From Cyanidioschyzon merolae (lineage: Eukaryota): a stretch of DNA of 64,000 nt. Shown piece after piece: positions 11,932-60,250 of this stretch. The stretch is from the NCBI GenBank assembly GCA_000091205.1, contig AP006496.2; one strand, written 5' to 3'. Position 1 is the stretch's first letter; every line of letters begins with the position of its first letter. The notes under the pieces are model-generated. The model had not been told where the DNA came from and did not search any database. It worked only from the letters and a program-made list of their open reading frames with translations. The position numbers were made by a program, and so were the translations under genes.

Positions 11932-12708
11932 ACTAGCTATTTATCTGGTACATATCATTCATAAGCACATGTTTTTGCGTTGAAACCCGGTAAAACACTC
12001 ATGACGTTTTGTGTTGAATTGCAACCAGCACGTTATCGACCAGCTCTCGAACAAAACATCGCTTTATACGGGAGAAGTTGCTGCGGTATTGACCAGAGCG
12101 TACGAAAACTTGTGCAGGCAAAAAGTGTCTGGAGCGCGACATGCTCGGTACAAGGCAGCATCAGGAAGCGTACGGAGCCGCCGCTGCACACCGCGCCGGA
12201 CGCTCTTGACCTGAGATCAGCTCCTCGCCATAACGGATAATTCAAGTTCAGGTTTCGGCGTTACCAAAGTCTCCAGTGCGAAAGCATCTTTGGGCCACGG
12301 CTGTGAATGGCGAGACGCTTTTGTCGTCCAGTAGAGTTGCACAAGGCACTATTCAGAGCCACTTTCAAAGGCGACTGGGCTCGCGCTCAACACGCAGCGT
12401 GCACCTGGACAGCGCTCCTGAAGTTCATACAGAGCAAGTCCGGAACTCCTGTTCAGCACTTGCAGCGCACGTATAGAACATTCCCCAAGCGCCTACAGAG
12501 CTTTTATAGACCACCGCGCTCGAGTCCAGGCAGGCTCCGCTCAGCTGCATGGAACCTCAACGCCTCCGCTGAACTACAGAATCATCTCCGTTCGAGCGTT
12601 GACCTGTAGCCGGGCAGGATCCCGACATCCACCTGGCGTTGTCCTCGTGTGGTACTTTACATTACAGGAAACAGTTCCAATAGAAGGGCTGTTCTCAGTT
12701 TAGACTAC

Positions 12709-14178: not shown

Positions 14179-15015
14179 CGCAAACCGAGCGACATGGTAA
14201 GAGGCGTATCAGCTGCACCCGTTTGCGATTGAAATGGAACGCTGAACTGTTTGCGCTTTTCATCCATTTCGATCGCTTTTCCGAACTTTTTGGGCGTGGA
14301 TGGCCTTGATCGTCAAAAAAAGGCAGCAATAGGGGCTCACGGATGCATACACGGTAATAGGAATTTTGGGCGTTATTTCGAAGTTGCTCCTTTCGCTGTT
14401 TGGTTTTGGAATTCGTTATTGCTCCGGATTCCAGATCATTTGCGACGACCTCGAATAACGCATTCGTAACATACCTGAAATCATTATCCAAAACAAGCGC
14501 ACAAGCCCCAAATATTCTGAATTCCTTGCGTGTGGATGCTCAAAGCTCGCATTCCTCAAGTTTTCGATCTTTCTGTTTCAGGGCATCTCGCGGACGCAGC
14601 AACTTGTGCCGCTCGATCGACGACGAAAAGAAAGTCAACTTCGTTCCCTAGAGGACTTGTTCAAAAGCTGATGCCGAAACCTTACTGAGCGTGTCAAGTC
14701 TTGTATTCGATTCCGTCCGAGTTACAAATTCTTCCCGCAGAAAAGCCCTACGAGGCGACAGTCGGAAAAGAACTACACTTTCGTGCGTATGCCCGTGTAC
14801 GACATCCTCGTTGATTGTATGCTGATACGGGTAGAAAGGCGAGGCATCAGCGGCTAAGAGCGGTCTCTCCTCCCGCCAAAGTCGCTTTGAAGCTCTCCGC
14901 GCATCGTCTCGCCAAGTCCGCAAGCCTGCGAAGCGATTCCTGTTAGCACCGAACGTCGACATCCTGGCATCGCAGCTAACGTTGCGCAAGCGTTACCGAC
15001 AAAGGCCTTCCTTGT

Positions 15016-17034: not shown

Positions 17035-17338
17035 GCGAGTCTCGAGAGCGAGTGATCCTTTCCGAAGAAATTTTCATATGCAGCAATCGCCCCTGTAGTC
17101 TGCTGACGGAAGAAGCACATTCTCGAGCGGGCAAGGTGCCAATTTTCAGCACGGGATGCAGCTTGTCGACATGAATTGCGTTCTTTGGGAAGTAGACGCG
17201 GCTTCTCGATCGCTGATGCAGTCTGTTCTCGGCGAGCAGCGGCATCGCTCGCGAGTGAGCCATGCTCGTTGATCCTTCAACGACCTGGAATGATCTGCTC
17301 TCGCGGGCACACCTTTCACAGGTGAGCACGAATGAAAC

Positions 17339-17812
17339 CTAGATTTCTTCCGGTACGGCGATATCGCTCGCTTCTTCACTGGTGTCCGCGCTGGGCAGGC
17401 TCGCCAAAGCCGCTAACGCTCTCCAGCGCAGTGCAACGGCTTCCAGGGTACCTCGCTGTCCACTTGGAGTATCCCATCCGAATGCAATGACGTTATCGGT
17501 AGTGTATACTAGATTCAGTCGTCTCCAGTCATGATCGGAGCCAGGAGCAGCGCTGCTTGGACCGATGACGGTAAACTGGGGGCAGTCTGTCGGACACGGA
17601 CCGCATGTCGGGCTAACGGACTCGTTCAGGGTGACCTGCTCGCCACAGAGGCGGTGACCTCGGAACGAACTCTCCCAGAGTTCACTTTCTGGTCCCTGTT
17701 GCTGTCCGGTGTCCGTGGCGCTCTTCCGCACAACCCAGTATGCCACGGAGTGCGCGGTCAGCGCACCGTCCCGAGCTATTGTACAGGGTAGACGAAAGAG
17801 ACCCTCTGACAT
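17339..17812 (-). CDS. hypothetical protein; weak ApaG/DUF525-like motifs
   Basis: 157-aa ORF in the gap between Mic60 and the hydrolase. 'FRGHRLCGEQVTL' and 'FGWDTPSGQRGTLEA' resemble ApaG 'VRGEGVVGEQPVL' and 'LETPSGTMQGTY'. This is weak. Confidence 0.25.
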   Translation of the reverse strand: MSEGLFRLPCTIARDGALTAHSVAYWVVRKSATDTGQQQGPESELWESSFRGHRLCGEQVTLNESVSPTCGPCPTDCPQFTVIGPSSAAPGSDHDWRRLNLVYTTDNVIAFGWDTPSGQRGTLEAVALRWRALAALASLPSADTSEEASDIAVPEEI

Positions 17813-18197
17813 GTGACTCGACTCCTCGGAAGCAAAAGCCCTCTCTCACGCTGCTGCGATGTGGTAAACCGTGTGTTGTTTTCGACGATGTGTCTTCTCG
17901 CGCGAGCAAGTCCCTGAAAGCAACAGTGTTCTTCTACAGTGCCGAGTTTTCGTGGACTACTCGGCGTTTCCGAAGTCGTACCTTCGCAAACAAGCGTGTC
18001 AATTCCTTGGAAGCAACAGGTTTATTCTTGACTGTCAAGTTCGTGTCACCGGATGCAAAGCCCAGCACAAAACCCGGAGCAAGTTCACCGGACCTTTCGA
18101 GCCTGTTCGGGGCTGTCGACTTGCACCGCTGCGCTCGCCGCTCGACGCCTTGTTCTGTTTTATGCGCTGCACACAAGCGAGACTGCGTTCTCCGTAA

Positions 18198-19145
18198 GTG
18201 GTTCTATGCTGCATGCACCCAGCCGCAGCACAACCTTCACGAATTGTCGTGTGCATTCATGGGTTTGGCGGATTCCGCTGGCAACTCGTACCGCTCGCGA
18301 GCTCCCTCAAGCGCTGCGGCTTCAACGTGTACAACTACGGCTACGCTGCCCGAAAGCACACGCTTGAGGAGCATGGACTGCACTTGGCAGCGTTCCTCGC
18401 TTCTATTGCCACTGAGTCCGGTCTCAGATCAGACGCTTTTCCGACACGACTCGGTTCCATCTCCTTCGTAACACATAGCTTCGGTGGCGTGGTGCTGCGG
18501 GAGGCGCTCACGGGTACCGCCTGGCACACGGCACGCTTGACGCCAGAGGCTGCACGTCGAGGGCGAGCAGTCTGTCTGGGACCACCGTTTGGTGGTGTTG
18601 CACTTGCCCGAGCGCTTCGACACCGTGAGGCTCACGGCCGAATGCCGTATCGAATTATCGAACGGCTTGCGAGGACACTACTGGGGCCTGCCGCGGGTCG
18701 TGAGTTGCTCGAAATGCCTGCCGAATGGTTTCTCCGCCGAGGAGGCATGCCCGATTCCATGCCTGTGTTGGTGATTGCCGGCGACATGGGACCCATTAAC
18801 CCACTTATTACGCGAACGCGGTCTCCCGAGGTCCGGTCCCAAGAGTCTGCATGGGGGCGTGGACAAATTATCAGCAGTGCAGCGTCGGAGGTTGCACCAA
18901 GTGATGGTATTGTGGGCGTTCATGAGACCTGGCTACCGAGTCGACATTGGTTCCTGCGGGTGCGGCTGCCTCATCACATGTTATTGTATGCGCCGTCTGT
19001 CATGGAGGCAACAGCGCAGTTCCTGCTCGCACAAGGTGATGATGCGTTGTTTGACTACAAACTCGCTGGTGTTGCGTTCAGGAACGAGAGGTACAAAGTA
19101 GCCGGAGACCCGGATACGGAAGCCGAGAGCACTGATCGACGTTGA
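18198..19145 (+). CDS. alpha/beta-hydrolase fold protein (putative lipase/esterase, DUF676/PGAP1-like)
   Basis: 315 aa. 'IVVCIHGFGGFRW' is an oxyanion/HG motif and 'SFVTHSFGGVVLREAL' is the GxSxG nucleophile elbow, both in the order expected for the fold. Confidence 0.6.
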   Translation: MVLCCMHPAAAQPSRIVVCIHGFGGFRWQLVPLASSLKRCGFNVYNYGYAARKHTLEEHGLHLAAFLASIATESGLRSDAFPTRLGSISFVTHSFGGVVLREALTGTAWHTARLTPEAARRGRAVCLGPPFGGVALARALRHREAHGRMPYRIIERLARTLLGPAAGRELLEMPAEWFLRRGGMPDSMPVLVIAGDMGPINPLITRTRSPEVRSQESAWGRGQIISSAASEVAPSDGIVGVHETWLPSRHWFLRVRLPHHMLLYAPSVMEATAQFLLAQGDDALFDYKLAGVAFRNERYKVAGDPDTEAESTDRR

Positions 19146-19272
19146 GCTAGTGTATGGAAGGTCGTTCTTGTGCAACTATTCGGAAGCACTAAGGCACGGC
19201 GTTGTGAACGGTGAGGCGTCGGCGCGAAATCCTCCAGACTGCCGCAAAGCTCTCTGCCGACCGCAAGGACCT

Positions 19273-19374
19273 GCATCTTCGTAGTCACGCGGTGTCCACG
19301 AAAGGATGACTATGCTGCGACCTTCATCTTCGTAGTCACGCGGTGTCCACGAAAGGATGACTATGCTGCGACCT
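19273..19374. repeat. 51-bp tandem duplication (x2)
   Basis: 'catcttcgtagtcacgcggtgtccacgaaaggatgactatgctgcgacc' occurs twice back to back, just downstream of the hydrolase gene. Confidence 0.8.
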
Positions 19375-19911
19375 GTCACCTGCTCGGGATCCGAGCCGCT
19401 CAGCGCCGAGCGCTGGTCAAGGACGCGAATGCGAGCTTCTTCTCTGTTCGATGCTGCATTCAGGAAAGACTTTAGGGGGCGTTCTACGTGGCATTAGGAA
19501 TGGCGACGCTCGGGATGGCCTCTTTCCGCAGCGGTTTGTTGTTCTACCAATACGAGCCTCTGTGCCTTGCAGCGGTTCCCGTTATCGAATGAAGCTTTTA
19601 CGAAGCAGATCTCAGCGGGAAACGCGGTAACTGTCGCAGTGTAGCGACGTCTCGAAAACTCGCATGTTCGGCGTGTTACGCGGCATCATCACAAAGCGAG
19701 GTTCTGGACACTGGCGATATATCGCCGAGTTTTGACTTGTTTCCAGAACATTTTCTTCGATTGACGAGCTTCAGCAGGCATGGAGTTGGGTCCTGCTTTA
19801 GAAGTCGGTGCTGCTCGCGAAACTTATGCCGCGGTCAGCACAGCGCTTCTGTGACGGGGAGCATGCAAGTCAGCTGGCTAGTCGCATTACTTTGCAGTGG
19901 ATCACGCTGCC

Positions 19912-20613
19912 TTACACGTTGAAATTGCTAGTCGAGTTATCCACAGATGAGCTGTTGTTCCAGAGAGGCTCCTCATCGAAGATGGACTCAGCCGAAGTGA
20001 GGAACTGGGCGAGGCTCGGCCCCGGCAGCGACCTGGATGCACGTCGAGCTCGCTTCACCACAGATGATTTTGCGCTTGTATCTGTCAACTTGTATGGAAG
20101 TGTCTCGTGCTCTGTGCGGACGTTACGCGGGTTCTGCATCTCTTGCATAAACCCAGTGATAGCTGCGTCAAGTTCGTCCGGGACGGAGCTCGGATTCTCG
20201 TGCGCTTGTGGCGCTATCAGGTCTGCATTTCGAACGAGCAGAGGTTCTGTTGAGTCGCTGCTCTCCAAGCTATATAGATGGGCATCTTTTCTCGGTCGGA
20301 GGGCGAACCTAGCGCGACACCGAGGACAGCACAGCAGGTACCGCCAGTTGCGGTGCTCCGATGGAGCGTGCACCGCAGTACTCGACTCTCGCCGAACGGT
20401 TAGCTTGCGTCCCCGCTGTATATAAGTCTGACACCGTAAACACTGCAGTGTGTAGGGCAGTACCAGTCGTTTCCGTTGCTGGGTCGTTGTGAGCACCGGG
20501 TGCGGGTGACGTTCCGAAACGGACGAAAACGGTGTTTGTGCGTCCGCTCCCCGTTTACGTTCTGTGCCAGGTGGCTCTGCGTTCATGTCCGAAATCTGTC
20601 GTCTGGAACACAA
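19912..20613 (-). CDS. Yju2/CWC16/CCDC130-like zinc-ribbon (DUF572) protein, putative splicing factor
   Basis: 233 aa. 'LVLPYTLQCLRCQTYIQRGRKLTVRRE...WRYLLCCPRCRARFALRPRKDAHLYSLE' parallels CCDC94/CCDC130 '...[21 protein letters not shown]...[25 protein letters not shown]'. The N-terminus does not match; an intron or a different start is possible. Confidence 0.4.
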   Translation of the reverse strand: MCSRRQISDMNAEPPGTERKRGADAQTPFSSVSERHPHPVLTTTQQRKRLVLPYTLQCLRCQTYIQRGRKLTVRRESSTAVHAPSEHRNWRYLLCCPRCRARFALRPRKDAHLYSLESSDSTEPLLVRNADLIAPQAHENPSSVPDELDAAITGFMQEMQNPRNVRTEHETLPYKLTDTSAKSSVVKRARRASRSLPGPSLAQFLTSAESIFDEEPLWNNSSSVDNSTSNFNV

Positions 20614-29873: not shown

Positions 29874-32574
29874 GCGGCATCGAGTGCGGGGTACTCAGCC
29901 GCTGCTGCTTGTACAGAAACGTATATGAATCGTAAGTATAATTGGCAACAGATATCGAGACAGGTGTGCAGCAGCGAAGCCAGCCGCGATACAGGTACTC
30001 CAAGCGCACGCCCTGCTCAGTTCTGAGGGCGACTCCGAGGCGAGGTTGTTTGCGCGATCGCGACGTTGACGACGCCCTAGGACGGCATCATCGCCAGCGG
30101 GGGGACGCTCACGCATCGCAGAGCACCCGACCAGAGGCCAGTGACACTTCCAGGTGCTTGACACCCGAAATGAGGACCCAGCTTATGCTTCGTTCCTCGC
30201 TGCACGGTGCAGGTTCTCTGGCACATGGGATGGTTCTCAGTTTCTACACCGACGTCTGCATATTGCTTCCGTTTGACGGTGCAGAACCGATGGATCAAAG
30301 CAGGATACCCCGATGAGGCTACTTGTACCAGCCGTTTGGACAGGCACTTTGGTTTCTTCATGGGCGTTTCGATGCTCTCGCGCTCACAGTACAGTGCACC
30401 CGAATGGAAAAGCGACCTGGTCCATCTTGCGCTCCTACGGTAGTAGCGTTGACTACCCGCGCTAGAGGGAATCGCCAGTGCGTGTGCTGCTGTAGACTTG
30501 TTACAGAGGCGCGACGACTTTGCGATGACTCTCATGGTGTCGGTTGGAGGAAATATTGTTCTTCCAGCGAGTCTATCAGGTACCAGTGCGAAGCATTTCG
30601 AGGAGTTGCCTCTGTCGTGGCACCGTGTGGGACGGAAATCGGAGCGCCCAACACAGCGCTTTCCGTGAAGGTGCCGCAGCCGCCTTTTCACCTACTTTAC
30701 GCTCCAATTTCCATCTCAGATGCCATGCCAGCAAGAGGCACGCATCAGCCATACCTGGGGGCTTCTATGCCGCATCGACGTAACGTGGACGCTTGGCCGA
30801 TGTTGCGGCTCTGGGCAGTTTCGCCGCAGCCTTGCCCGAGAGCACGCATTCGCAGCTCGCCGTTGGGTGCGTGCCAGGCAATCAGTGCCCTATGGCCTGT
30901 TGCTGGGGTGCTGTCCAACATGTCACTGCGAGCGTGTCTGTTGGCGTCGATGCCGCTGCGCGATGCACGCATCGTGCACGACACGCATTCGCCGACACGG
31001 ATGCATGAACAGTTTGCAATGGGTGCTATGTGTACTGTAGACCGTTTGCGCAAGCTGCTAGTCGCTGTGCCTAGTGCTCTTCACGGACGCTTAGAAACGC
31101 AGCGAATCATAGTTTTTCAAGAATAAAATTTATTCCACTCTCCCTATGGTGCACTGCAGGAGATCGACATCACGATGCAATGCATAGTATAGATCGTGGA
31201 CGAATTGCCCGTACGAGATATATTCTTAACTGAACAGTGCACGGTGGAATGGATTTCTCCTTCAGGTCAGTCATAGCACCTTGCTCCAACGGTTGAGGAA
31301 CACTGGAAGAACCAAGAATATGCGCTCCGCGCCAAAACCCGATATTCTCAAAGCGTGCTTGCGGTCAACGATAGAACAACATCCGTAGATAACCTTTTAC
31401 GGAAACCAAAAGCGATGATAATAGACACCATGGGTGTGTCTGATACTCTATATCTTATTCGTGTGGTCCTGAAAAAACAGGGATAAAATCGCAAAAACGT
31501 CCTAGTTCAAGCACGGCCATCTTCGACCGAAATCGCAACGCCAGCGTTTCTGGAACGTCGCAATCGGGATGAAGCATGGGGGCGTCGGGTTGTTTCCTTT
31601 TTCTTCGACGAGACTCTGCTCGGATAAAACCGTCGGAGCGTATATGGGTATGCGCGGAGAGGGAGCCCGTTGTATGTACGACCGAAAGTCGAATGCGAGG
31701 CCCAAGCAGCAACAGCATTCACTTTGTCGAATTATTGATGACTTTCACCGGACACCTGGCTACGTTCCTCCGCTGAACCACAAGACATTTCACCATTCCG
31801 ATTGCGTCCGAGTTTTTGCCGATTCTGGCGGTTAATGGAGCTCCTTTTCATTCCTCTGTACAGCCCGCGGTTGAAACCCATCGAAGCAGAGTTTTCTCTT
31901 GTGATACGCAATGATCGCTGCATTGGGCGAATCGCTGCAGCGTTCATCACACAGTGACGTACGGAGACACAATTCGTCTCCCATCCGCAAGTCCTACTTC
32001 CTCCAGGAACGTCCTCGCCTACCGGCACAATGGAGTGTATTCGATTTCGAAAATAAGTGGATGCGCTGGGGTGCACACATCAGAACGTCGAAATGGAGGC
32101 GAAAGTTCGAGGACTTCTTGAATTGATGAGTTCCACCACAGGTAACGGACACGTGGAGTGCGTGAACCGAGACTTGCACGCCACGAATTATATGAGGCGA
32201 TGTGTTGTGCTGATGACGAGACTTAAAGAGCTGACGCCATCCAGCTTTGTGGAGCAGCCTCTCAGGCAGGAATTGCGCCTGGATGAACTGAAGCCGATAG
32301 CAGGTGAGCGATCCAAAAAGGCTGGGTGGTGTCAGCACGAGGGTATCCATTTCATCCACATGACCGTAGAACATTTTGCGTTTGACTTACATACATAGGT
32401 TCTATTCTGGAGTGACAGAAAGAGCTTGTGGTTGGCGATAACTCTATCCCAGTTCGTGGCAGACGTTATCTTCGGGCACCCGTGCTTGGTACGCGTCTTG
32501 CGACGTTCTAGTTGATCTTGAAAGCGCTGCTTGCACTGAATGGAGTGCGCCCCTGCGGATGCAAACGTGTACCT

Positions 32575-48742: not shown

Positions 48743-48789
48743 CTTTCAGCAACACTTATGCGCAGTAGATAGTACGTACGGGCGCCGCA

Positions 48790-51700
48790 GCCAAACGCCT
48801 TTCGAAAGTCGAACGACGTCGGGCGTGTACAGTAGCGGCGACCGGCGGCCTAGACGTAACGCTTCCAGCTGGTGTGCAGACGCCTCCCAGCGTTTCTCGG
48901 CGGGCCACGTACTATTTCTTCTAATTTCGTCTCATATACTTCTACTTTTCGAGATTGTCCAACAAAATTCCCTCTTGTCTACTCTGGAGGTCTGTTCTCC
49001 AGCACTGCCCATCTCCGGATATTGATAGCGGCGTTAAAGTCACGATTCACAAAATCCATACGTCTCCTGCAATCTCTGGTTGTACTTTCTGATGCAAGTA
49101 GTCCACGAACTTTCGCTCTCCTTTCAATTTGCTCTTCCGTCAGCGGTTCGTGCTTTGCTATTTCCGAACGGCTCGTTGGCACTTTTCCATCTCCACTGTC
49201 TGAAGTGTACAACCCATTTCATGGTGTGTATAGGACGTTCGGAACTCATGTACAGGTATCGTGAAGAAACGCCTTGCGCACTCTTTGTATGTTCTTGCCG
49301 TTGGAACTGGCGCAGTCCCTTTTTTCGACGCCGAGCACCCTGCTCTGTACGCTACTACGAGCCTCTGACTTTCATCCTCCTTCAGGGCGCTCAACTGATT
49401 GAAAAAATTCGCGAACGCCCGCTGCTTCCCACAATACAAGTTCATTCACAAACGAGCCCACCGGGGCTTGGTATACTCCTCCCACAGCGCCTCCCAATGA
49501 GCAGCGCGAACTTTCATGAATTTCCGAAAAGCTTCAAAGTCCGCTCCTCGGCTAGTCACCTCGCTCAAAGCTTCCATGTGATCCTTCACTCCTGAATTCC
49601 ATTTCTCGATTTTCTTCCTTGCATTCATTATACCGGATTCTCGATAGTATCTTGGTCTCGAGAACCTCAAAAGACGCATGTCTCTCTAACGAAAGTTACC
49701 ACCAGTACTATCTTCCGCACGCTTCGGTGCTGCGATGGTGATGATATTCGTATTCCCGGGGTCCGCGCCAACGACAAAGTCGTTATCTTGTACTTTCTGT
49801 GCCGCAGGATCCGCCTTCTTGTTTTCTTCATGCTTCGTCGCGCCAACGACAAAGTCGTTATCTTCCACTTTCTGGGTCGCAGGATCCTCCTCTTTCTTTT
49901 CTTCATGCTCCGCCGCGTCAACGACAATGTGGTTATCCTCCACCTCCTGCGTCGCAGGATCCTCCTCTTTCTTTTCTTCATGCTCCGCCGCGTCAACGAC
50001 AAAGTCGTTATCCTCCGTCTCCTGCGTAGCAGGGTGCGCCTCCTTCTCATCTTCATGCCTCGCCGCATCAACGACATGGTCGTTATCTTCCACCTCCTGC
50101 ATGAGAGGATCCTCCTCTTTGTTTTCTTCATCCTTCGTCATGGGCGCAGTCGAGGGCGGAATTGGACGATCTTTCTTCAACCGCCGATAGTGTATACACA
50201 TGGCTACTCCATCGGTTTCGATCAACCCAGTAAATACCTTTTGTTTGGTCTCTTTGAGACGTTTGAAATTGAAGATATTCTTCCAGTACGTCTCCCGGTT
50301 ATCACCGGAGAACTCCTTGTTGCTAACATTGAACTCCGGACAGATCTCCTTCATGATGCCATGAAGGATCCTGGAGTCGATACTCACAAAATGTGACTTG
50401 ATGTTGCACAACGGAACCACGTTGAACCGCTTACCCATTAGGAAAGCCTTCTGTCTCTCCCACTCTTCATTTTTCCTCACTCAGCTTCATCTCCGCCTTG
50501 CGTTCGAGTTCTCGATTCAGGAATACGAAATAGAGCAGGATGAGTTGATAGCATCTTTTTTCATCTTTTTTGAACTCTGATATTTTTTCTGTTGGATTCG
50601 CCAGCCCCATGACTGCACGGTGCTCTTGTATAACCGCACGGATTACAGAAGCCTCATTCGTGCTCTCGTTTGGCGCCTTCTTGTCGACAAATTCGACCTC
50701 ATCTTCATACTTTCGATCGTTCGTGATGCCATTGATAATCGCCCATATTCCTTTGCGAGACAGGCCCGGGTAGAGTGGAAACACGGTGCGTATTATGAAA
50801 CGTTCGAGGTTCATTGTCAAATGGTTCTTCAGGTTCGTGATGTGCTTCATCGCCCCGTAGCCGTAAATACCCCGGTCACCCTTGTATCGAGTACCGTTGA
50901 AGCTGTAAAAGGGATGTTTTTCGTGGGGGCCATGCACTAGCACATTTTCCCTCCGCGTTTTCTCTCCACCAAGCATCAGGTGTCGAATAAAGGTGATGTC
51001 GAAAAACTCGTCTGGAATCTCGACCGTTTCGATGTGCGTCACGTCTTTGTACATCTCCCTCGCCAAATGCATCAGCCCTGACGACGCCTTGACAATACTC
51101 TTGGAGTACGAGTCGACGCGTTTTTCGATAGCGTCTCGCAACTTTTCCCTGTACGGATCCTTGATATGGCCAAGAAGAAAGGCTCTCATCACCTTCTCGT
51201 CGTACAGTCGTCTTTCTTGCCGCCTTCGACGTAGGACCTCTCCCCTTCGGTTCTTTTTCTTCTCCTTTTCTTCTGGGCTCGGCACTGTTTTTCGTTTTTT
51301 CTGGCAGCCAGCGATACTGGGCCTCCAGGATCGTCGACTTGCTTTTTCATAGCTTTCCTTTTTCAGTTTTTTTAAATGAACCCGCTGTGAATGCTTCGGT
51401 TATATACTGCGAAAAAACACTTGGCCAGACTTGTTTGAGGGTTGAAACACCAATGAACTGAAAACTATATTTTTGTTCGACTCCGACGCAAATACAACTT
51501 TTACAGCTGAACAACACGCTCCTGGTCAGCATCGCGGTTCCTTTCAACGGCGGCATGTGCATCGCGTCAGTTGACTGCCTGATCTCCGAGATGCGTTCAT
51601 TAAGCGCAATGCGTCCATCGCACGAGACGCCACTCCAGTCGATGAAGGACACGTGTCCGACACCCCGCATTGGCACATGCGTGTTCGCATCGCATTGCAG

Positions 51701-51790
51701 CCAAACTAAAGTATCGTAGATAGGAAACTCACGTAGAACGATCTCTTGCTATAGACGCTGTCGCTGGTGCCGAAGCTACTGCCCATCGCA
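48790..51790 (-). mobile_element. Fanzor/TnpB-like (OMEGA-family) nuclease element, copy 1; AT-richer than surroundings; frame-disrupted
   Basis: The encoded protein pieces carry a basic NLS-like N-terminus (EKEKKKNRRGEVLRRRRQERR), the RuvC-I motif '[15 protein letters not shown]', the mid motif 'VHEFRTSYTHHE' and the RuvC-III motif 'FVNRDFNAAINIRR'. Non-coding homology to copy 2 extends about 500 bp 5' of the ATG and about 190 bp 3' of the stop. Local GC is clearly lower than the flanks. Confidence 0.65.
48979..51350 (-). pseudogene. Fanzor/TnpB-like RuvC nuclease coding region, copy 1 (split into 5 ORF pieces by frameshifts)
   Basis: The ORF pieces are 50467-51285, 49686-50480, 49446-49679, 49158-49445 and 48979-49212, all on the minus strand, and concatenate into one Fanzor-like protein. 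The breaks after KLSEEK and after EKCQRAVRK are absent in copy 2. The breaks at GNFR/MRLL and near the N-terminal MKKQ ORF are shared with copy 2. Confidence 0.6.
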
Positions 51791-52563
51791 GTACCGCCTG
51801 GACATACATGGAAATGTTGGGACCTAACGCGATACCTCGTGATGCTTCTATCAAAAGCGTAGCGTTCTCTGCGGCTTACCGTTGTGTGGATGACGTATGC
51901 ATCACTCTTCTCACTAGGAATTTCGTTAGTTTTATTCATCGTAACCAAACTAGGTACGGTGGGATTCCTGAACACGGACATACGTTTAATGCCGATGCTT
52001 GTCACGCATGCTACACTGACGCTGGAATGAGGAACTGACCTGAATTGTGCTTCTATCCTGCGTCATAGGCTGGTACTGATGACCGTTCAAGTCATTTCCA
52101 TGCTGCTGTCGTTGTCTAACTTATGGTGCCTGCTTCGTCCTCCGGATCCGGTGATCTTGGCAGAGGCATAGCACACTCGACCGGCCCCCTGCTATCGGTT
52201 TCAGCTTCTCCTTGTTCACCTCTGGCCTGGGAGGTTCCCCCAGAAAGTTGGACCGCGTCAGCTCCGCCGGTCGCGCGTTCATCACCATTCATCATCTGAT
52301 ATTGATGGCGTTTTGTCTGAAACGCTCGTGATAGAGCTGAGGTCAAGAAGCGATCAATCTTGACCGACGCTATCAAACGAGCGGTACCAGAAGCTGAGGG
52401 CTGCAGCCGGCACCAGGTGCTCTGATGCCTACATGCTGGCCGTGAATAGTGCGTGACGAAGTCGCACAGCATGCCACGGTTTCCTAGTACGTAAACCAAG
52501 CACGTATTCGAAACGTTCGGGTTCAGTGTGATGACGAGTCGCCGCTACGGCATTCTGGGAAAA

Positions 52564-53079
52564 TCATCCGAGTGCGCTATGGTTGTTCGAACATCGAGCA
52601 TCATCACGTGTATGGGTGCGTTTCACTGCACGAGTTGCAACGATCATCGAATCCACCATCATCCAAAAGTGACGAAAATTTACAAGCGTACCGGGCTCGC
52701 ACCTCCAGGTCAGGACGTGCCCACCAGCACGCAAACAAATTTCGTGCCCTGCTGTGCTTTCACCAAAAACGAAAGGAAACATGCGTTTCCTCGACCAGGG
52801 ATAGAGGGTTCCGAATTCCTTCAGATACTGCCGATGTTTCGTCCGAACCCAGACCAGCATCTGCAGTGTGCCCACGAGCATACACAGGATGCCTGCGATT
52901 GTTCGCATCATCGAGATCAATCCTACCCACGCCAGTACCTCAAATATGCAGTTCGGATACGACACGAACTCGAAAAGCAAGCCGAATGGGATCCGCCACC
53001 AGCAGCGGCCGCGAAACCCGATTGCAAACCGCTCCCGCAAGCCATTTGGGCAAACGAGTGGTGCAGCGCGCATATTCAT
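52564..53079 (-). CDS. 3-oxo-5-alpha-steroid 4-dehydrogenase (SRD5A/polyprenol reductase) C-terminal-domain protein
   Basis: 171 aa. 'RIPFGLLFEFVSYPNCIFEVLAWVGLI...RTKHRQYLKEFGTLYPWSRKRMFPFVF*' matches the SRD5A C-terminal signature 'GG.feyvS.PNY.gE..eW.G.......H..Y...F..YP..RkalIPfif'. It is shorter than full-length family members; the N-terminal TM helices were not found. Confidence 0.45.
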   Translation of the reverse strand: MNMRAAPLVCPNGLRERFAIGFRGRCWWRIPFGLLFEFVSYPNCIFEVLAWVGLISMMRTIAGILCMLVGTLQMLVWVRTKHRQYLKEFGTLYPWSRKRMFPFVFGESTAGHEICLRAGGHVLTWRCEPGTLVNFRHFWMMVDSMIVATRAVKRTHTRDDARCSNNHSALG

Positions 53080-53664
53080 ATAATGCAGCAGCAGTAGCAG
53101 CAGCAGAGTGCATCTAGGGGTGTGCGTGGATGGTGAGCATGCGTTGCGCAGCTACGATGTGCTTTCGTTGAATGCGGCAGATAGCTGCATGGATCGTTGC
53201 GTGCGGTGCGCTGCTGTGATGCGCTTTACGGGCGGCGTTCGGGAAACCTGCTTTTGCCTCACGGGAGCGCGCGTCAGTGTCGAGTAGCCCGTCGGCAGGG
53301 CCGGACAGCATCTCTTGCAAACGAGTCCGCTGGCAGCGAATCGAGCAGGCGATACGACGTTGCGCTCGTCATCGGATATCGGCACTGCAAGGCACACGGA
53401 TACCTGTAGAGCTCGTAGTTGATCGGTCTGCAACACGGTTCGGCATGCGCCTCGCCAGGGAACTGCAGAGCAAGTGTGTGCGTGCACAAACGATGCGCGC
53501 TCTGGGCTGGAAAACGACGCTGCGTCGCAGCTTGTGTCCGCAAAATATACGTACTCCTCTGGTTCGGTATCGGAAACCGCAGTAGCTACTCGCGCAGGTG
53601 CTGCTGACACAGGTATCGATTGCGCGGCGCCTGAGCGCAATATCCAACCGCCGCGACTCTGCGC

Positions 53665-54240
53665 TCACATGTGCGCTTCGATGCCACGGAGGATTTCTTC
53701 GGCCTTGGCGCCGTTAATCGTGAGCACGCGGTCACCATTCTTGTAGAAATGAAAGCTCGGTACGCTGCGAATACCAGCGGCCTTCATCATCATAGATGTT
53801 TCCTTGGACTTATCCCCCACCACTTTTAAGAACACCACGTCGGTGTACTCCTCACTCCATGATTCCATCTTCGGTTCCATGAGTTTGCACGGCCCGCACC
53901 AGGTGGTCCCGTAATCGACAACAATGAGCTTGTTCCCCGCTTCCGACAGGATGCGTTCCATTTCCTCTTGTGAATCAACTTCCCGAACCGCCATCCTAGG
54001 CCGAAGCGAACCCAGAGGCCTGCGGCGGCTGTAGCTGTAGCTGCAGCGGTGGTGGTGGTGGTGGTGGTGTCCAGACCCAACGCCCTGCTGCACCGTTCCG
54101 AGGGCGTGTCGGCGCCATAGCGGCGCTTTACTGCCACTAGCAAGCAAGGCCCGTGTACACACCGCGCCACTACCGAGGTCAGCGCGTTTCCCGACCGATC
54201 CCGCAACAGGTACTGATACAAAGCAACTGATTCCTACCAT
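53665..54240 (-). CDS. TRX: thioredoxin (WCGPC active site); core domain from ATG at 53994, upstream in-frame 82-aa extension with (His)7 may be a presequence
   Basis: 'LIVVDYGTTWCGPCKLMEPKMESWSEEYTDVVFLKV...GIRSVPSFHFYKNGDRVLTINGA' is a canonical thioredoxin. The longer ORF adds an R/S-rich N-terminus containing HHHHHHH encoded by (GTG)n. Confidence 0.8.
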   Translation of the reverse strand: MVGISCFVSVPVAGSVGKRADLGSGAVCTRALLASGSKAPLWRRHALGTVQQGVGSGHHHHHHHRCSYSYSRRRPLGSLRPRMAVREVDSQEEMERILSEAGNKLIVVDYGTTWCGPCKLMEPKMESWSEEYTDVVFLKVVGDKSKETSMMMKAAGIRSVPSFHFYKNGDRVLTINGAKAEEILRGIEAHM

Positions 54241-54425
54241 TTCCGTCTCTCAGGGTCCTGCTTGTGTGGAGTACACGTTGCCCAGCAAAGCACCAGCGTA
54301 GAGCAGTCGCCACAACGATCTCCGCGCCTGTGCGCTGCGGCTGGCGCACTGCCGCATCTCATCGAGGCGAGATCGCGGCGCCTGGAAGTGGACATCAGCG
54401 GCGGCAGCGGCGGCAGCGGCAGCAG

Positions 54426-54626
54426 GTGTCACGAGCACGGGGTGCGGACATATACCAACGAACATACGGTGTGTCGATGGGTGCTGCTTTGGGTGTCACG
54501 CGCACGGGGTTCCGAAGTATATCAGTGAACATACGATGTGTCGATGGGCGCTGCTTTGGGTGTCACGCGCACGGGGTGCGGACGTATATCAGTGAACATA
54601 CGGTGTGTCGATGGGCGCTGCATTGG
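54426..54626. repeat. 67-bp tandem repeat x3 upstream of the thioredoxin gene
   Basis: The unit 'gtgtcacgcgcacggggtgcggac.tata.cagtgaacatacggtgtgtcgatgggcgctgctttgg' is repeated three times contiguously, about 190-430 bp 5' of the thioredoxin ORF. Confidence 0.8.
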
Positions 54627-56406
54627 ATGAGCGTCGATTGCGATCGTTTGCCAGATGAAGCATTTCTAGAAGCGGATGTACACCTCCTAACGCATGATAT
54701 TTCCTGTATGGATGCGTCCGTTGCTTGACAAGGCCAGGGTGATCTCGACTTCGGATCGGATGCTGTTGATGATACGCCAATGATCGAGAGATCATTCGGG
54801 TATCGAAAGCATGATCGGTCTCGTGTACCAGATAGATTGCAATCGCGAATACTGGAACCGAGGAGCACCCCAGTACGCGAGCGCTCGCAACACGTGTCCC
54901 CACTGAGCGAGCGCCTCACTGGGCGACATCGGCCTCGTGGTGAAGCGTCGCAGCGTGCCCCTATTCATAAGCAACGACGATGCTGCAGTCCTGGCGCTGC
55001 GATTGTGCCGTTTGTGGTCTGCTAGTATTATTTTGACACGGTTCGACACCTGATACCGAGGGCTCGCGCTGCCGCGGGATGCCCAGCTCCGGTTTTCGAT
55101 CCCCGCCTTCGAGCGCTGCCTTTCGGATTCAACGACCGGCTCAGCAGCGAGACTAGTGACGAATCGTCTGAAAGCGCTGCTAGGACGCTGCGCACTGCCT
55201 CTGTGTACACGCGTAGGCGGTGGGTATCTGGATGCGACGCGCTCGGCTTTGCTCAGCGGAGCGCTTTTGTGCAACCATTGCGCATGTTGCTGCTCGGTTG
55301 CGACTTGGTCTGGATGGCAGTCTATTCGAGTCTGAAAGTCACGCATTAGGTCATGAGGGTCATTTTCACTTTAGTGACATGCAAAACGGAAAGCAGGTAC
55401 TCAATGTTCCAATGGGGTTTGCTTGCGTGCATCCATAGACGGCCCGCATCAAGCTTCCGCTCGATGCTGTTTCTGGCGCTGAGCATCGCGGGCACGCGGC
55501 ACTCGGCACTGTGAGGTGAGCAGCGACCTGCGCGAGCGCAACACATTACGGCCGCAGGAAGAGGTGTCGATCAAAGGGGTCGAACGGATTCCACTGCCCA
55601 TGGGTCACTCGGTGAAGCCGTTCGCATGTACCCGTTCCCAGTCATCATCAGCGTGTTGGGTATCGATCAGCGTTTGCGTTTCGCGCTTGAAGCAACTGCC
55701 TCTCTTCATATACCACGGATGCATCCGTATGCTCGGCTTGTATGGACCACGAACTGGATCCCATGTCAAGCAGGCAAACGGACGCGCTCTTTCGTGACCA
55801 ATACACAGCATCTGCTGAGCGTCGCTCGATCGCTTTCTTCCTTCCAGTCCGCGAATGCTCCGATGCGTGCTCGTTCGACGCGAAGTCGCACCAGAGAAAC
55901 TGCATCGAACAGAGTCCGTCATGCATCGTCGCAGGAAACACAGCATTATCATAAACACGCACGCTGCCTCGGGTCTTTTGAGCCTTGCGCACATCAAAAG
56001 TCAACAGGCCCGCTGCCGGGTGCATCGCGACGATCGTCAGCGATCAGTGCGTACCGTCCGAGATCGTGATTCCCTAACCAGCATGAGCGCGTCGTTCCTT
56101 GTACATCATCCACACTATAGTGCTGCGTCATCCACGCTCAGTGCTCACACGACGCGCCCAGCTCTAACAGATGCGCCGCCTGACTATTGCGCAGACAACC
56201 GGAGGCACACATCCGCGAAACCAGACATCGCCGGTATTTCCCCAGGCAAGTCATTTGCTGAACGCGCGGTCATTCAAGGGAGCCTATCGGGAAATGCCTA
56301 GAAATGACGAGCCCCTATGGCAGGTGCATGAGCCTTCACTGCCACCGTTCTATGCCTTCTGTCCTGAGACGCGCCGGCGCTGTCGCGGCCGTCGGTAAGC
56401 CAGCGC

Positions 56407-57075
56407 TCAAGCACCAGCGCTGTAACAATGCTGGCTGGGATCCGAGCCCAAGATGACGTAGGTGTAAATTTCGTCGTTCAGCATTTGTGCGGTATACGAT
56501 GCGATAAACTTGTACCGACCAGAGGTCAGCGCTGAACGGAATACCCGTTCCATCTCTGGAACCACCAGCATTGCAGCTTCAAAGGCCTCCCGTCCAAAGA
56601 GGCCCTCGCCGCCGTATGCATACGGACTCGACCAGTTGAAATAGTGCGCTGGCAACTTTGTGGCATGCGCAGCGCCCATATAGTCGGTGCTGGTCCAGCC
56701 GCCCACGGCGAGCGCTGACTCGACAGCTGCCCGTCCGAGCGCACTGCAGTTGCCAGCGGCCACGTCTGCTATCGGACACTCCACCATGTTATCCACGACG
56801 TTCGCAGCACCAATGATCAGTCCCTTGTTCAGACACAGGTCATGATCAAGGTCTGCAAGCGCATTCATGATGGTAAAGTCGTATTGCGACACGTTCAGGG
56901 CCATAGCGTCGGTCTCGTTGATGTAGATGCCACCGAGCGCCCTGCTCGGCACCCGCAGGATACTCTCTTCGAGCGTCTCGAGGTTCAGCGGCGTAACCAC
57001 TGTCGCAGCACAACGAGACAAACATCCCGCAAGCCCCCACAGGCTAAGAAAAGCGAAAAGAAGCCACGCTCGCAT
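56407..57075 (-). CDS. secreted protein, paralog A of a small family (signal peptide, N-glycosylation sites, conserved C-terminal LGxDPSQHCY)
   Basis: 222 aa from the ATG at 57075, which starts 'MRAWLLFAFLSLWGLAGC' (a signal-peptide-like hydrophobic N-terminus). It shares 'LN.SQ..FT..NAL..L...LCLN', 'CSAL', 'GWTST', 'YFNWS' and 'LGSDPSQHCY' with the ORF at 62544-63191. The ORF-track extension to 57528 is probably non-coding. Confidence 0.5.
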   Translation of the reverse strand: MRAWLLFAFLSLWGLAGCLSRCAATVVTPLNLETLEESILRVPSRALGGIYINETDAMALNVSQYDFTIMNALADLDHDLCLNKGLIIGAANVVDNMVECPIADVAAGNCSALGRAAVESALAVGGWTSTDYMGAAHATKLPAHYFNWSSPYAYGGEGLFGREAFEAAMLVVPEMERVFRSALTSGRYKFIASYTAQMLNDEIYTYVILGSDPSQHCYSAGA

Positions 57076-57439
57076 ATTAATCAGAACAGAGCCACGTTCC
57101 AGGAAAAACAGCAATGTCTCTATCGTGGGTGGTGCTGCATTGGGGATCAAGGCGCACCGCGTGTGCGTGCGTCTGTGCGCGGAGCGCCCTGCGGCGAACA
57201 GGCCCCGGTGCAGGCCCTGCGAGACGCCGCGGTGGCACCACCGGCGCACGCCTCGGGAGCCGGCACACTCGATCCGTGGCGATCGAACAGGCCCAGCGGC
57301 AGCGCCAAAATGGGCGTTCGGGACGTCGGCGGCGCCACCAGCATCAGCGATCGGCGCCAGATTAGGAAGCGATGCGTGCCGGCGCGCGCTGTTTCCGACG
57401 TTCCAGGCGTCGACGCGTCGATGTCGGTGGTGGTGGCTG

Positions 57440-60250
57440 CGGGCGCCTGCATCTCCACTTAGGTGAGGGCGGTACTGAGATGGGCAGGAGCGTCGGCACC
57501 AGCGACATAGCATAGAGCAGGAGTGCATTCTACGTGAATTTCCAATCTAGGACACCTGATTTCAGCTGCAGTGCGATGCGAACACGCATGTGCCAATGCG
57601 GCTTCGGACACGTGTGCTTCATCGATCGGAGCAGCGTCTCGTGCAGTGCACGCATCGCGCTCGGTGAGCGCACCCCGGAGATCAGGCAGTCCATTGACGC
57701 GACGCGTATGTCGCCAATGAGGGGAAACGTGATCTTGATCAGTAACGTGTAGCCGCAATGTAAAATTGTAATTTCATTGAGTTCGTATCCAGGTATAGTT
57801 TTTATTTCAATTGTGCTTCACCCTTAAAACAAGCGTAGTCAAGTGTTTTCTCGCGGTATATAACAGAAGCGTTCAAAGAACGTTCTTTTTCAAAAAAAAA
57901 TCTAAAAAAAGGAAAGTTATGAAAAAGCAAGTCGACGATCCTGGAGGCCCAGTGTCGCTGGCTGCCAGAAAAAACGAAAAACAGTGCCGTGCCCAGAAGA
58001 AAAGGAGAAGAAAAAGAACCGAAGGGGAGAGGTCCTACGTCGAAGGCGGCAAGAAAGACGACTGTACGACGAGAAGGTGATGAGAGCCTTTCTTCTTGGC
58101 CATATCAGGGATCCGTACAGGGAAAAGTTGCGAGACGCTATCGAAAAACGCGTCGACTCGTACCCCAAGAGTATTGTCAAGGCGTCGTCAGGGCTCATGC
58201 ATTTGGCGAGGGAGATGTATCGCGACGTGACGCACATCGAAACGGTCGAGCTTCCGGACGAGTTTTTCGACATCACCTTTATTCGACACCTGATGCTTGG
58301 CACAGGGGAAGCGCGGAGGGAAAATGTGCTAGTGCATGGCCCCCACGAAAAACATCCCTTTTACAGCTTCCAGGGTAATCGATACAGCGATGACGGAAAT
58401 ATTTACACATGCGGGGTAATGAAGTACATCACGAACCCGAAGAACCATTTTACAGTGAACCTCGAACGTTTCATGATACGCGCCGTGTTTCCACTCTACC
58501 CGGGCCTGTCTCGCAAAGAAATACGGGCGATTATCAATGGCATCACGAAGGATCGTAAGCATAAAGATGAGGTCGAATTCGTCGACAAGAAGCCGTCACG
58601 CAGGAGCACGAATGAGGATTCTGTAATCCGTGCGGTTGTACAAGAGCACCGTGCGGTACTGGGGCTGGCGAGTCCAACGGAAAAGATATCAGATTTAAAA
58701 AAAGATAAGGAAAGATACTATCGCCTCGTCCCGCGATATTTTGTGTTTCTGGACCGAGAGCTCGAACGCAAGGCAGAGGTGAAGCTGAATGGGAAAAATG
58801 ACGAGTGGGAGAGACGGAGGGCTTTCCTAATGGGAAGCGCTTCAACCTCGTTCCAATGTGCAACATCAAGTCACATTTTGTGAGTATCGACTCCAGGATC
58901 CTTCATGGCATCATCAGGGAGATCTGTCCGGAGTTCGATATAAGGGAGACAGAGTTCACCGGTGAAAACCGGGAGACATACTGGAAGAATATCTTCAATT
59001 TCAAACGTCTCAAAGTGACCAAACAAAAGGTATTTACTGGGTTGATCGAAACCGATGGAGTAGCCATGTGTATACACTATCAGCGTTTGAAGAAAGATCG
59101 TCCTGGTCCGCCCTCGGCGAACCACGAAGATGAGACGGAGGCGGTTCCTGCCACGTAGAAAGTGCAGGAAAACGACTTTGTCGTTGGTGCGGCGAAGCAT
59201 AAAGATGAGGAGGAGGAGGATCCTGCGACGCATGAGGTGGAGGATAACGACTTTGTGGTAGGCGTGAACCCCGGGAACACGAATATCATAACCATCGCTG
59301 TATCCAAGCGTGCAGAAGATGGTACTGACGGCAACTTGCGTCAGAAGACATGCGACTTTTGAGGTGCTCGAGAGCAAAATGCTATCGAGAATCCGGTATC
59401 ATGAATGCAAGGAAGAAAATTGAGACATGGAATGCAGTAATGAAGGATCACCCGGAAGCTTTGAGCGAGGTGACGAGCCGCGGCGGGGACTTTAACGCTT
59501 TTCTGAAAATCATGAAACTTCGCGTTGCTCGTTGGGATGCGCTGTGGGAGGAGTATACAAAGCCTCGGTGGGCTCGTCAACGTATGAAACTATACTGTGG
59601 TAAGCGGCGCGCGTTCGCGAATTTTTTCAATCAGTTGAGCGCCCTCAAAGAGGATGAAAGTCAGAGGCTCGTAGTAGCATACGGAGCAGGGCGCTGGAAG
59701 ATCCAAAAAAGGACTACGCCAGCTCCATCGACAAGAACGTATAAGGAGTGTGCACGGCGTTTTGCTACAATACCTGTTGATGAGTTCCGAACATCGTATA
59801 CACACCATGAACGGTGATGTACGCTCCAGAGAGTCGAGATGAAAAAGCGCCAGAGGAGCCCTGAGGATATAAAAAAGTACGGAGCGCAAACGGAAGAGCA
59901 AATGGAAAGGAAAGCGAAAGTTCGTGGACTGATCGCATTGGCGAGTACAATCAATGGCAAGAAACGTATCGAATTCGTGAACCGAGACTTTAACGCCGCC
60001 ATCAATAGAAGGAGATGTGCGGCGATGGAGACGAGACCTGCGGAGTTGACAAGAGAGAATTTTATGGGGCAACCTCTCAAGGTGGAATTATACGATACGA
60101 AGCTGAAGTCAGTAGTAGGTGGCCGGTCGAGAAAGACGGGGAGGCGTCTGCATTTCAGTTGGAGACGTCTCGTCTAGGACGAGTTCGCCGCCACTGCTGT
60201 ACACCGCTGGCGGCAGCGTTGTTCTTTTGGAAAGCGTTTGTTGTTCGTGG
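57440..60250 (+). mobile_element. Fanzor/TnpB-like (OMEGA-family) nuclease element, copy 2, inverted relative to copy 1
   Basis: It has the same architecture and flanking non-coding homology as copy 1 at about 80-90% nucleotide identity. The RuvC-I motif reads '[15 protein letters not shown]' (Asp to Asn). The RuvC-III motif 'FVNRDFNAAINRRR' is present. There is an in-frame TGA at 59816-59818. Confidence 0.65.
57919..60180 (+). pseudogene. Fanzor/TnpB-like RuvC nuclease coding region, copy 2 (frameshifts plus in-frame stop)
   Basis: The ORF pieces are 57984-58883, 58805-59158, 59162-59362, 59350-59817 and 59839-60177. There is a 1-bp deletion in 'ggaaag' after AFLMG relative to copy 1, and a TGA within '...THHER*CTLQRVEM...' where copy 1 reads HHEMGCTLQTVEM. 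Confidence 0.6.

Follow-up and report, generated by a model that had tools for sequence, protein, structure and literature searches.

How do two diverged repeats, each with the remains of a RuvC nuclease gene, come to stand head to head a few kilobases apart in a genome as streamlined and as nearly free of introns as that of Cyanidioschyzon merolae? The question is raised by a stretch of 64,000 nucleotides of C. merolae 10D chromosome 14 (contig AP006496.2 of assembly GCA_000091205.1), analysed as a whole and here called the window, in which a preliminary description, made from the letters alone, had seen an inverted pair of Fanzor/TnpB-like elements bracketing a segment of host DNA. The answer reached here is that the repeats belong, by their sequence, to CMe-1A, a family with a Fanzor1 gene published in 2013 and so not new, and that they are very probably two old copies that decayed independently, their inverted geometry being the outcome of two insertions and not the mark of a composite mobile unit.

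Two copies of a published family

The two AT-richer repeats, each of about 3 kb, lie at 48784-52175 on the minus strand (copy 1) and at 57450-60248 on the plus strand (copy 2). A repeat finder returned 14 inverted-repeat segments tiling 48846-51816 against 57450-60181 at 75-93% complementarity, the longest being 910 nt and 90% complementary, and global alignment of copy 1 with copy 2 gave a single colinear unit in opposite orientations, with the 5' ends inward. GC content is 0.47-0.51 in both units and 0.55-0.67 in the flanks. Repeat finder, global alignment and base composition all bear out the head-to-head layout first described, though not the extent of what lies between the copies: because copy 1 with its leader reaches 52175, where an older fragment takes over (Table 1), the supposed 5.6 kb of bracketed DNA comes down to about 5.1 kb of non-element DNA.

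To what family do they belong? CMe-1A was described from C. merolae by Bao and Jurka (2013, Mobile DNA 4:12; PMC3627910), who put it at some 150 copies per genome, about 80% identical to a consensus of 3169 bp, the first 635 bp of which are a separate repeat, TE-N2_CMe. It encodes a protein of 734 amino acids (aa), CMe-1, assigned by those authors to Fanzor1, and some copies keep intact open reading frames (ORFs); it has neither a transposase gene nor terminal inverted repeats (TIRs), and its target-site duplications were not determined in that publication. When the consensus, taken from the 2013 supplement, was aligned to the window by blastn, copy 1 (window 51595-48796) matched consensus 661-3169 at 85-86% identity and copy 2 (57656-60236) matched 648-3169 at 84-87%. 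If the mark of the family is set at about 80% identity or more to the Fanzor-coding part of the consensus, both copies belong to it, over about 2.5 kb. The protein of copy 2, once its frame is repaired, is 75% identical to published CMe-1 over its full length. In the same blastn comparison the TE-N2_CMe part, the first ~650 bp of the consensus, found no counterpart in either copy or anywhere in the window.

The encoded protein as a Fanzor1 nuclease

Was the protein really a Fanzor, as the motifs had suggested? RuvC-II, (D/H)EFRTS, and RuvC-III, NRDFNAAIN, are present in both copies, the former within EFRTSYTHHE at 49247-49218 (copy 1) and 59782-59811 (copy 2), the latter within VNRDFNAAINI at 49050-49018 (copy 1) and VNRDFNAAINR at 59977-60009 (copy 2). 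RuvC-I reads GADPGNT in copy 1 (49769-49731), its DPG being conserved in the family alignment, and GVNPGN in copy 2 (59261-59299), where an Asp to Asn change at codon 59267-59269 has cost the catalytic Asp. The motifs first quoted, with D or N at this place, are all there; in copy 1 the catalytic positions are still D, E and D. Among 58 relatives E656 is invariant and D725 at least 90% conserved.

The repaired copy-2 translation found 40 relatives, nearly all of them in JGI metagenome records, the sources of the intact ones being what we take to be hot-spring samples. The best is P0001, of 752 aa, with 68% identity over 95% of the query. The most distant to come from two word-indexed homologue searches is P0040, an intact protein of 652 aa from an ENA metagenome, at 33% identity and 91% coverage; the second of those searches brought mostly near-identical fragments and little added diversity. 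An exhaustive profile search reached 2760 cluster representatives at E ≤1e-3, 358 of them at ≤1e-30. Against the PDB, a profile of four close relatives gave only a marginal match (E = 0.013), for which reason an alignment of 58 relatives, mostly full-length members, was needed. Its profile matched just three distinct sequences there, all Fanzor1: Parasitella PpFz1 (1.8e-22), Spizellomyces SpuFz1 (1.6e-12) and Guillardia GtFz1 (1.3e-9), the alignments spanning the DPG, DEFRTS and NRDxNAAxN motifs and the last two of these falling on their counterparts in PpFz1 and SpuFz1.

An AlphaFold model of P0001, built on the same alignment, has a mean confidence (predicted local distance difference test, pLDDT) of 82 and a predicted template-modelling score (pTM) of 0.80; residues 374-470 alone, the equivalent of an acidic repeat in the window copies, are disordered, with pLDDT <50. 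In a Foldseek search of the PDB its top seven matches are all Fanzor1, at E = 2e-16 to 6.5e-14 and with a target-normalised TM-score of up to 0.72, while Cas12 proteins trail at E ≥7e-3. In this 68%-identical relative, then, the predicted structure has the Fanzor1 fold, with REC, WED, RuvC and NUC lobes. Four independent comparisons, of nucleotides, protein, profile and fold, thus confirm that the elements are of the Fanzor/TnpB-like RuvC-nuclease kind: consensus match, 75% protein identity, PDB profile and fold search all agree with what had been proposed, and the check by profile and structure suggested at that time led to Fanzor1 by both routes.

Pfam told another story. Scans of the ten ORF fragments, the repaired protein and the intact relatives gave nothing significant, the best being Cas12f1-like_TNB at E = 0.23-0.24, and a precomputed match to PF26935 (DUF8286) was not reproduced in them. 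Had the zinc-ribbon model for TnpB, another of the checks suggested, been the sole arbiter, a sound claim would have been wrongly discarded. The Pfam zinc-ribbon model is blind to the family because the clade is devoid of the CxxC zinc finger: in the alignment of 58, the CxxC motif between RuvC-II and RuvC-III is missing from 57 members. A conserved RGLLWCxST stands in its place in the clade, and CMe-1 itself has HH-x3-C-x10-C. A CCCC zinc finger is common to SpuFz1 and ISDra2 TnpB, and Yoon et al. (2023) separated Fanzor from TnpB by the DPG of RuvC-I and by a glutamate six residues before the zinc-finger position. The CMe-1 family carries both of these features. As the profile and fold evidence is strong, we read the missing finger as a probable derived loss within Fanzor1 and not as evidence against membership. 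In the Fanzor literature searched for 'zinc' a zinc-finger-less clade found no mention; a large Fanzor1 clade of this type is a new side observation and a modest addition.

What would such a protein do? By analogy with its characterised relatives, an intact member would make a ~734-aa DNA endonuclease of the Fanzor1/TnpB type, cutting with a RuvC (D-E-D) site under RNA guidance. Its guide RNA would come from transcription of the element's structured 3' end, continuing into the flanking DNA. CMe-1A itself is a non-autonomous transposon family, with a Fanzor1 gene and without a transposase gene.

Origin of the inverted arrangement

The preliminary description offered two views of the geometry, a composite arrangement or two independent insertions of one family. 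It is the second that fits. Copy 1 and copy 2 are 84.3% identical, which equals the 83-85% that they share with unrelated copies and lies below the 86% that they share with the consensus, as expected for a star-like old family. They differ in the length of the leader (~565 against ~200 bp), in the number of repeat units (five against two) and in their lesions, and homology between them stops at the element ends. The foremost alternative is that one copy was made from the other by local inverted duplication, or that the pair is a composite transposon mobilising the 5-kb segment; we consider this unlikely. The closeness of the copies, just 5 kb apart and inverted, invites it, and so do three things that they have in common, namely the type of leader, termed class B, a frameshift at codon 17 and a tract of 300 bp in which identity is 95-99%.

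How do these three fare? The class-B leader, missing from the published consensus, recurs at no fewer than five other loci (L017, L036/L060, L038 and L062 at 76-89% for that of copy 1; L017, L036, L060, L062 and L074 for that of copy 2), and so marks a subfamily and not a duplicated flank. The codon-17 frameshift was considered as a sign of common descent of the pair and rejected: it sits in an A6/A7 run of variable length that puts many copies of the family out of frame, 20 of 57 having the length seen in the window copies, and such a run is a mutational hot spot and not a marker of shared descent. There remains the tract, 57981-58280 against 51288-50989, which is the only similarity specific to the pair. 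In a four-way comparison with the pair on L003, a 94.9-kb metagenome contig, the identity between copy 1 and copy 2 (W1-W2) is 0.99 and 0.95 in the two 150-nt windows of the tract and 0.69-0.92 in all others, so outside it not above that to unrelated copies; within the tract, the L003 copy at the copy-1 position is 82-87% identical to its own partner. The tract is best read as a putative gene conversion, and short patches of clustered differences at 58550-58640 in copy 2 point to further ectopic conversion.

For a composite transposon, too, the ingredients are missing: CMe-1A comes without transposase and without TIRs (PMC3627910), and in the window neither copy supplies a transposase gene, the nuclease genes of both being dead. 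The same junctions recur in every contig from other samples. In the 10 contigs that contain it, the bracketed segment always stands in this context, the rest of the genome not having been searched for the unit.

Several points weigh against the account preferred here, of two independent insertions of a Fanzor1 family. An ancient inverted duplication followed by long divergence is a remote possibility. That the two copies are not each other's closest relatives was judged against 56 metagenome copies, taken as hot-spring ones, plus this 10D window. The model depicts P0001, which shares 68% identity with the repaired window protein, and not a window sequence; the clade has no CCCC zinc finger, so that the architecture of its nuclease lobe may differ; and the proposed guide-RNA mechanism draws on homology to SpuFz1, PpFz1, GtFz1 and TnpB.

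Could either copy be alive?

It had been stated that each copy encodes a protein. The RuvC-I, EFRTSYTHHE and RuvC-III motifs are indeed there, yet in each copy the coding region is broken into five ORF fragments that lie in different frames, no ORF being intact, so that the statement holds for their ancestors alone. When aligned to the consensus coding sequence, each copy shows at least five lesions (Table 1), that at codon 17 being the only one common to both. Judged from the sequence, neither window copy can make the protein, and both are pseudogenes.

Might the lesions instead be introns, sequencing errors or programmed recoding, with functional Fanzor1 made from one copy or both? Several involve just one base, in one case within a homopolymer run, and some CMe-1A copies have kept intact ORFs (PMC3627910), which gives the idea some appeal, but we think it very unlikely to be right. 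The lesions stand in different places in the two copies and include TAG and TGA where the consensus has sense codons; P0001 and the 747-aa ORF of the metagenome copy L028 read unbroken through the same positions; copy 2 is covered by metagenome contigs at 99-100% identity; and in copy 2 the catalytic Asp is gone. Other ORFs of the window, on both strands, are long and unbroken, up to 3504 aa, as fits a nearly intron-free genome. ORFs of >700 aa with all three motifs are present in 2 of 82 copies, L028 and L001 (722 aa), the ATG of L028 falling in an N-terminal stretch unrelated to CMe-1. As to the element ORF fragments of the window, two have exact records in JGI/IMG only, with none in NCBI or UniRef, and the other three tested are absent from the collection searched.

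The only likely present activity of the two pseudogene copies would thus be a passive one, as substrates for recombination and gene conversion between the two or with the ~150 other copies.

Other strains and the assembly

Is the arrangement real, and how old is it? Nine independent metagenome or read-set contigs, at 98.7-99.7% identity, join the bracketed segment to one or both copies at the same positions: L011 and L012 run from the thioredoxin side into the copy-1 core (98.7-99.5%), and L004-L010 into copy 2. The presence of the same junctions in contigs from other samples implies that the insertions predate the divergence of those strains, and that the arrangement is unlikely to be an artefact of assembly, one of the two circumstances named beforehand that would have undone the claim. 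Empty sites in related strains were sought to define the target-site duplications; every contig carried the insertions.

L003 departs from this at one place. Between window positions 60350 and ~51560 it matches at 99-100% identity; from there its 12650-20576, set against window 51560-48790, has a different CMe-1A core (~85%) and a different flank, with glutaredoxin, PRPP synthetase and RRN3. The switch may reflect a rearrangement through the repeat in that strain, or the contig may be chimeric. Among 80 loci neither the L003 nor the window type of core at copy 1 has an independent second contig; L011 and L012 agree with the version in the window and not with that in L003. L038 was considered as an orthologous locus and rejected, both of its outer flanks being different. 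That the inverted arrangement is a collapsed or mis-joined repeat, as the disagreement of L003 at copy 1 might suggest, is scarcely credible, given that a chimera or a real rearrangement would account for L003 just as well, that copies 84% identical are far too diverged to collapse, and that L011/L012 and L004-L010 cross into the two copies.

Ends and leaders of the family

Where does the element begin and end? The 80 copies that were fetched with their flanks from metagenomes and mapped to the CMe-1A consensus fall into two groups by their 5' starts, about half at consensus 1-4 and the rest at 646-690; about half are without TE-N2_CMe and have other leaders instead. All share a core, its start set from an alignment of 27 copies, that begins with a GC-rich stem-loop. 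Inspection by eye of the 5' ends of 42 copies gave the stem variants GCGCTC/GAGCGC, GCGCG/CGCGC, GGCG/CGCC and AGCGCG/CGCGCT. As the core may follow any of at least four unrelated leaders (TE-N2_CMe in forward or in inverted orientation, class B, class C1), the 5' terminus is uncertain. At 16 TE-N2_CMe loci (e.g., L057 189, L086 1562 and L055 1215) with unrelated flanks, a T-rich motif, roughly GATTTYTTTY, stands directly before consensus position 1, and represents either the true terminus or a target-site preference. No recognisable TA duplication was seen in the consensus-type CMe-1A copies examined.

At the 3' side, similarity among 59 copies continues ~12 nt beyond the published consensus (TTTGyTGyyGGy) and then stops. 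In the last ~110 nt a hairpin spans the stop codon, another stem encloses the conserved CTACTGTACAC, and a stem-loop forms the end. The terminal stem occurs as two sequence types, each in its own register, and as further variants in which pairing is preserved, e.g., TTCGA/TCGAA to TTCTA/TAGAA. Against shuffles, the terminal fold has z-scores of -2.3 to -4.5 in 8 of 10 other copies; the weaker values in the window copies (-0.7 in copy 1, -1.1 in copy 2) indicate that their terminal stems have eroded. Applied to the 3' 300 nt, RNAalifold gave almost no consensus structure because the terminal hairpin occurs in two registers, and folds of single sequences were used instead. The structure probably belongs to the sense strand, as its U-G pairs become A-C mismatches on the other.

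What might these ends be for? By analogy, the 3' structure fits the guide-RNA scaffold of a TnpB/Fanzor transposon end, and may also fit hairpin ends of the single-strand kind, as in IS200/IS605 or Helitron2 elements. Subterminal hairpins are present at both element ends, the 3' stem being backed by the shuffle test and the 5' stem by eye; a putative match to the asymmetric terminal inverted repeat of the Helitron2 type, also by eye, extends to 8 of 12 bases. A core of 2.5-2.6 kb with stem-loops of conserved pairing would have the hallmarks of single-strand transposition, IS200/IS605- or Helitron2-like. It is tempting, though doubtful, to go further and propose that the mobile unit of CMe-1 is not the published 3.2-kb consensus but this stem-loop-bounded core, which would insert beside, or become joined to, interchangeable leaders (TE-N2_CMe in either orientation, class B, class C1), that its 3' end doubles as guide scaffold for the zinc-finger-less clade, and that conversion among copies is ongoing. 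What is added here to a known family is modest: refined termini, modular leaders, a lost zinc finger and the conversion tract.

Features of the window and its genes

The coordinates are collected in Table 1. The 75-nt unit of the direct repeats corresponds to an acidic repeat of 25 aa, present once in the published consensus, twice in copy 2 and five times in copy 1. The counterpart in copy 1 of the core-start stem-loop, at ~51607-51593, is degraded. The remnant beside the copy-1 leader suggests tandem or nested insertion; at L043 and L046, TE-N2_CMe likewise stands 56 bp after a CMe-1A 3' end.

Table 1. Positions in the window of the CMe-1A copies, their parts and their lesions
Feature	Position	Strand	Basis or detail
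Copy 1, core of CMe-1A (5' hairpin, decayed Fanzor1 gene, structured 3' end)	48784..51610	-	blastn to consensus
Copy 1, class-B 5' leader in place of the consensus TE-N2_CMe leader	51611..52175	-	76-89% to other loci
Older CMe-1A 3'-region remnant, directly upstream of copy-1 leader	52176..52310	-	69% to copy-2 ~59997-60131
Copy 1, Fanzor1 pseudogene, ATG 51350 to TAG 48852-48850	48850..51350	-	alignment to consensus coding sequence
Copy 1, acidic repeat, five tandem 75-nt units just before RuvC-I	49763..50137	-	direct-repeat family D1
Copy 1, putative gene-conversion tract, 95-99% to copy 2 57981-58280	50989..51288	-	four-way and sliding-window comparison
Copy 1, 3'-terminal stem-loop, one mismatch	48794..48820	-	fold z-score -0.7
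Copy 1, frameshifts	-1 nt codon 17 (~51300); -2 nt codon 293 (~50474); -1 nt codon 627 (~49174)		
Copy 1, premature stops	TAG 49688; TGA 49448; TAG 48981		
Copy 1, other change			four extra 75-nt repeat units (300 nt)
Copy 2, shortened class-B leader, ~200 bp against ~565 bp	57450..57653	+	80% to 51816-51600
Copy 2, core of CMe-1A	57654..60248	+	blastn to consensus plus 12-nt 3' extension
Copy 2, stem-loop at core start, GCGCTC-GGT-GAGCGC	57657..57671	+	by eye
Copy 2, Fanzor1 pseudogene	57919..60177	+	alignment to consensus coding sequence
Copy 2, acidic repeat, two 75-nt units	59115..59262	+	direct-repeat family D3
Copy 2, 3'-terminal stem-loop, weakened	60213..60243	+	fold z-score -1.1
Copy 2, frameshifts	-1 nt codon 17 (~57969), codon 306 (~58832), codon 457 (~59345)		
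Copy 2, premature stops	TAG near 59156; TGA 59815		
Copy 2, other change			Asp to Asn at RuvC-I
Third CMe-1A fragment, short and old, ~700 bp upstream of the 3504-aa ORF	32090..32339	+	consensus 2835-3087, 70%, blastn

Six ORFs of the window are exact C. merolae 10D proteins within BAM81343-81357: the dynamin-related CmDnm2/DRP5, beta-tubulin, CMN269C, BAM81343 with a thioredoxin-like fold, a thioredoxin f-like protein and CMN280C. Between the two copies stand the thioredoxin gene and CMN280C. What was first called an SRD5A-like gene (52564-53079, minus strand) is less than that: it matches positions 73-150 of the 150 of Steroid_dh, the C-terminal half of the domain only, and continues past the match in a read-through tail of 66 aa. 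In the collection searched its exact sequence has ENA and JGI records only, none in NCBI or UniRef. The Steroid_dh fragment recurs, with class-B leader and core, at L038 1704-2640 at 85-89% identity, which could be gene-fragment capture or segmental duplication.

The annotated ORF of CMN280C (56407-57528, minus strand, 373 aa) starts at 57528, so that its first stretch (57450-57528) lies inside the leader of copy 2. From a Met at 57075 a protein of 222 aa would be made, its N-terminus, MRAWLLFAFLSLWGLAGC, resembling a signal peptide; as the versions called in metagenomes are also 222 aa long, the annotation probably extends the N-terminus too far. Between the thioredoxin gene and CMN280C, at 54425-54629, there are three tandem 67-nt units, 86-89% identical, which are kept in the contigs of other strains. 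The window has no tRNA genes, and no Rfam family reaches the gathering threshold in it.

Significance and comparison with known systems

As a discovery the locus has little weight, Fanzor1 in C. merolae having been published in 2013 and both copies being inactive; rhodophytes are also among the Fanzor hosts of Jiang et al. (2023). It has more as a worked example, in which a TnpB-like nuclease was spotted by motif reading alone and missed by Pfam. The 80 metagenome copies refine the ends of the CMe-1A family, and the loss of the zinc finger in the clade could be of use in assays of intact CMe-1 protein for RNA-guided nuclease activity. At the dead inverted copies, ectopic recombination may reshape an otherwise very streamlined genome.

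How do the window copies compare with what is known? With published CMe-1A they have in common family and host species, the lack of a transposase gene and of TIRs, and their being old and diverged; they differ in having the class-B leader instead of TE-N2_CMe, extra 75-nt units and a 3' end ~12 nt longer, and in both being pseudogenes. With SpuFz1 (8GKH), PpFz1 (9CF0) and GtFz1 (9CER) the CMe-1 relative shares the overall fold, the RuvC D-E-D triad with DPG, and NRDxNAAxN, at a sequence identity in the Foldseek alignments of 13-14%; unlike those three, the CMe-1 clade is without the CxxC zinc finger and has a disordered acidic repeat before RuvC-I.

The Fanzor1 elements of Tc1/mariner type, such as PUl-1 of Pythium (PMC3627910), have a layout that is shared by the distant relative P0040: on L002 its gene (1501-3459) lies 35 bp downstream of a DDE_3 transposase ORF (588-1466), the layout of a mariner-borne Fanzor1. 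Consensus copies of CMe-1A, in contrast, have no transposase ORF, no TIRs and no recognisable TA duplication. With the non-autonomous Helitron2-type Fanzor1 elements of Chlamydomonas (CRe-1, CRe-2 and CRe-3) and with bacterial IS200/IS605 TnpB elements the likeness lies mainly in the ends: CMe-1A likewise has stem-loops at or near both ends and no TIRs, and its nuclease gene likewise lies toward a structured 3' end, with a hairpin ~12 nt from the terminus.

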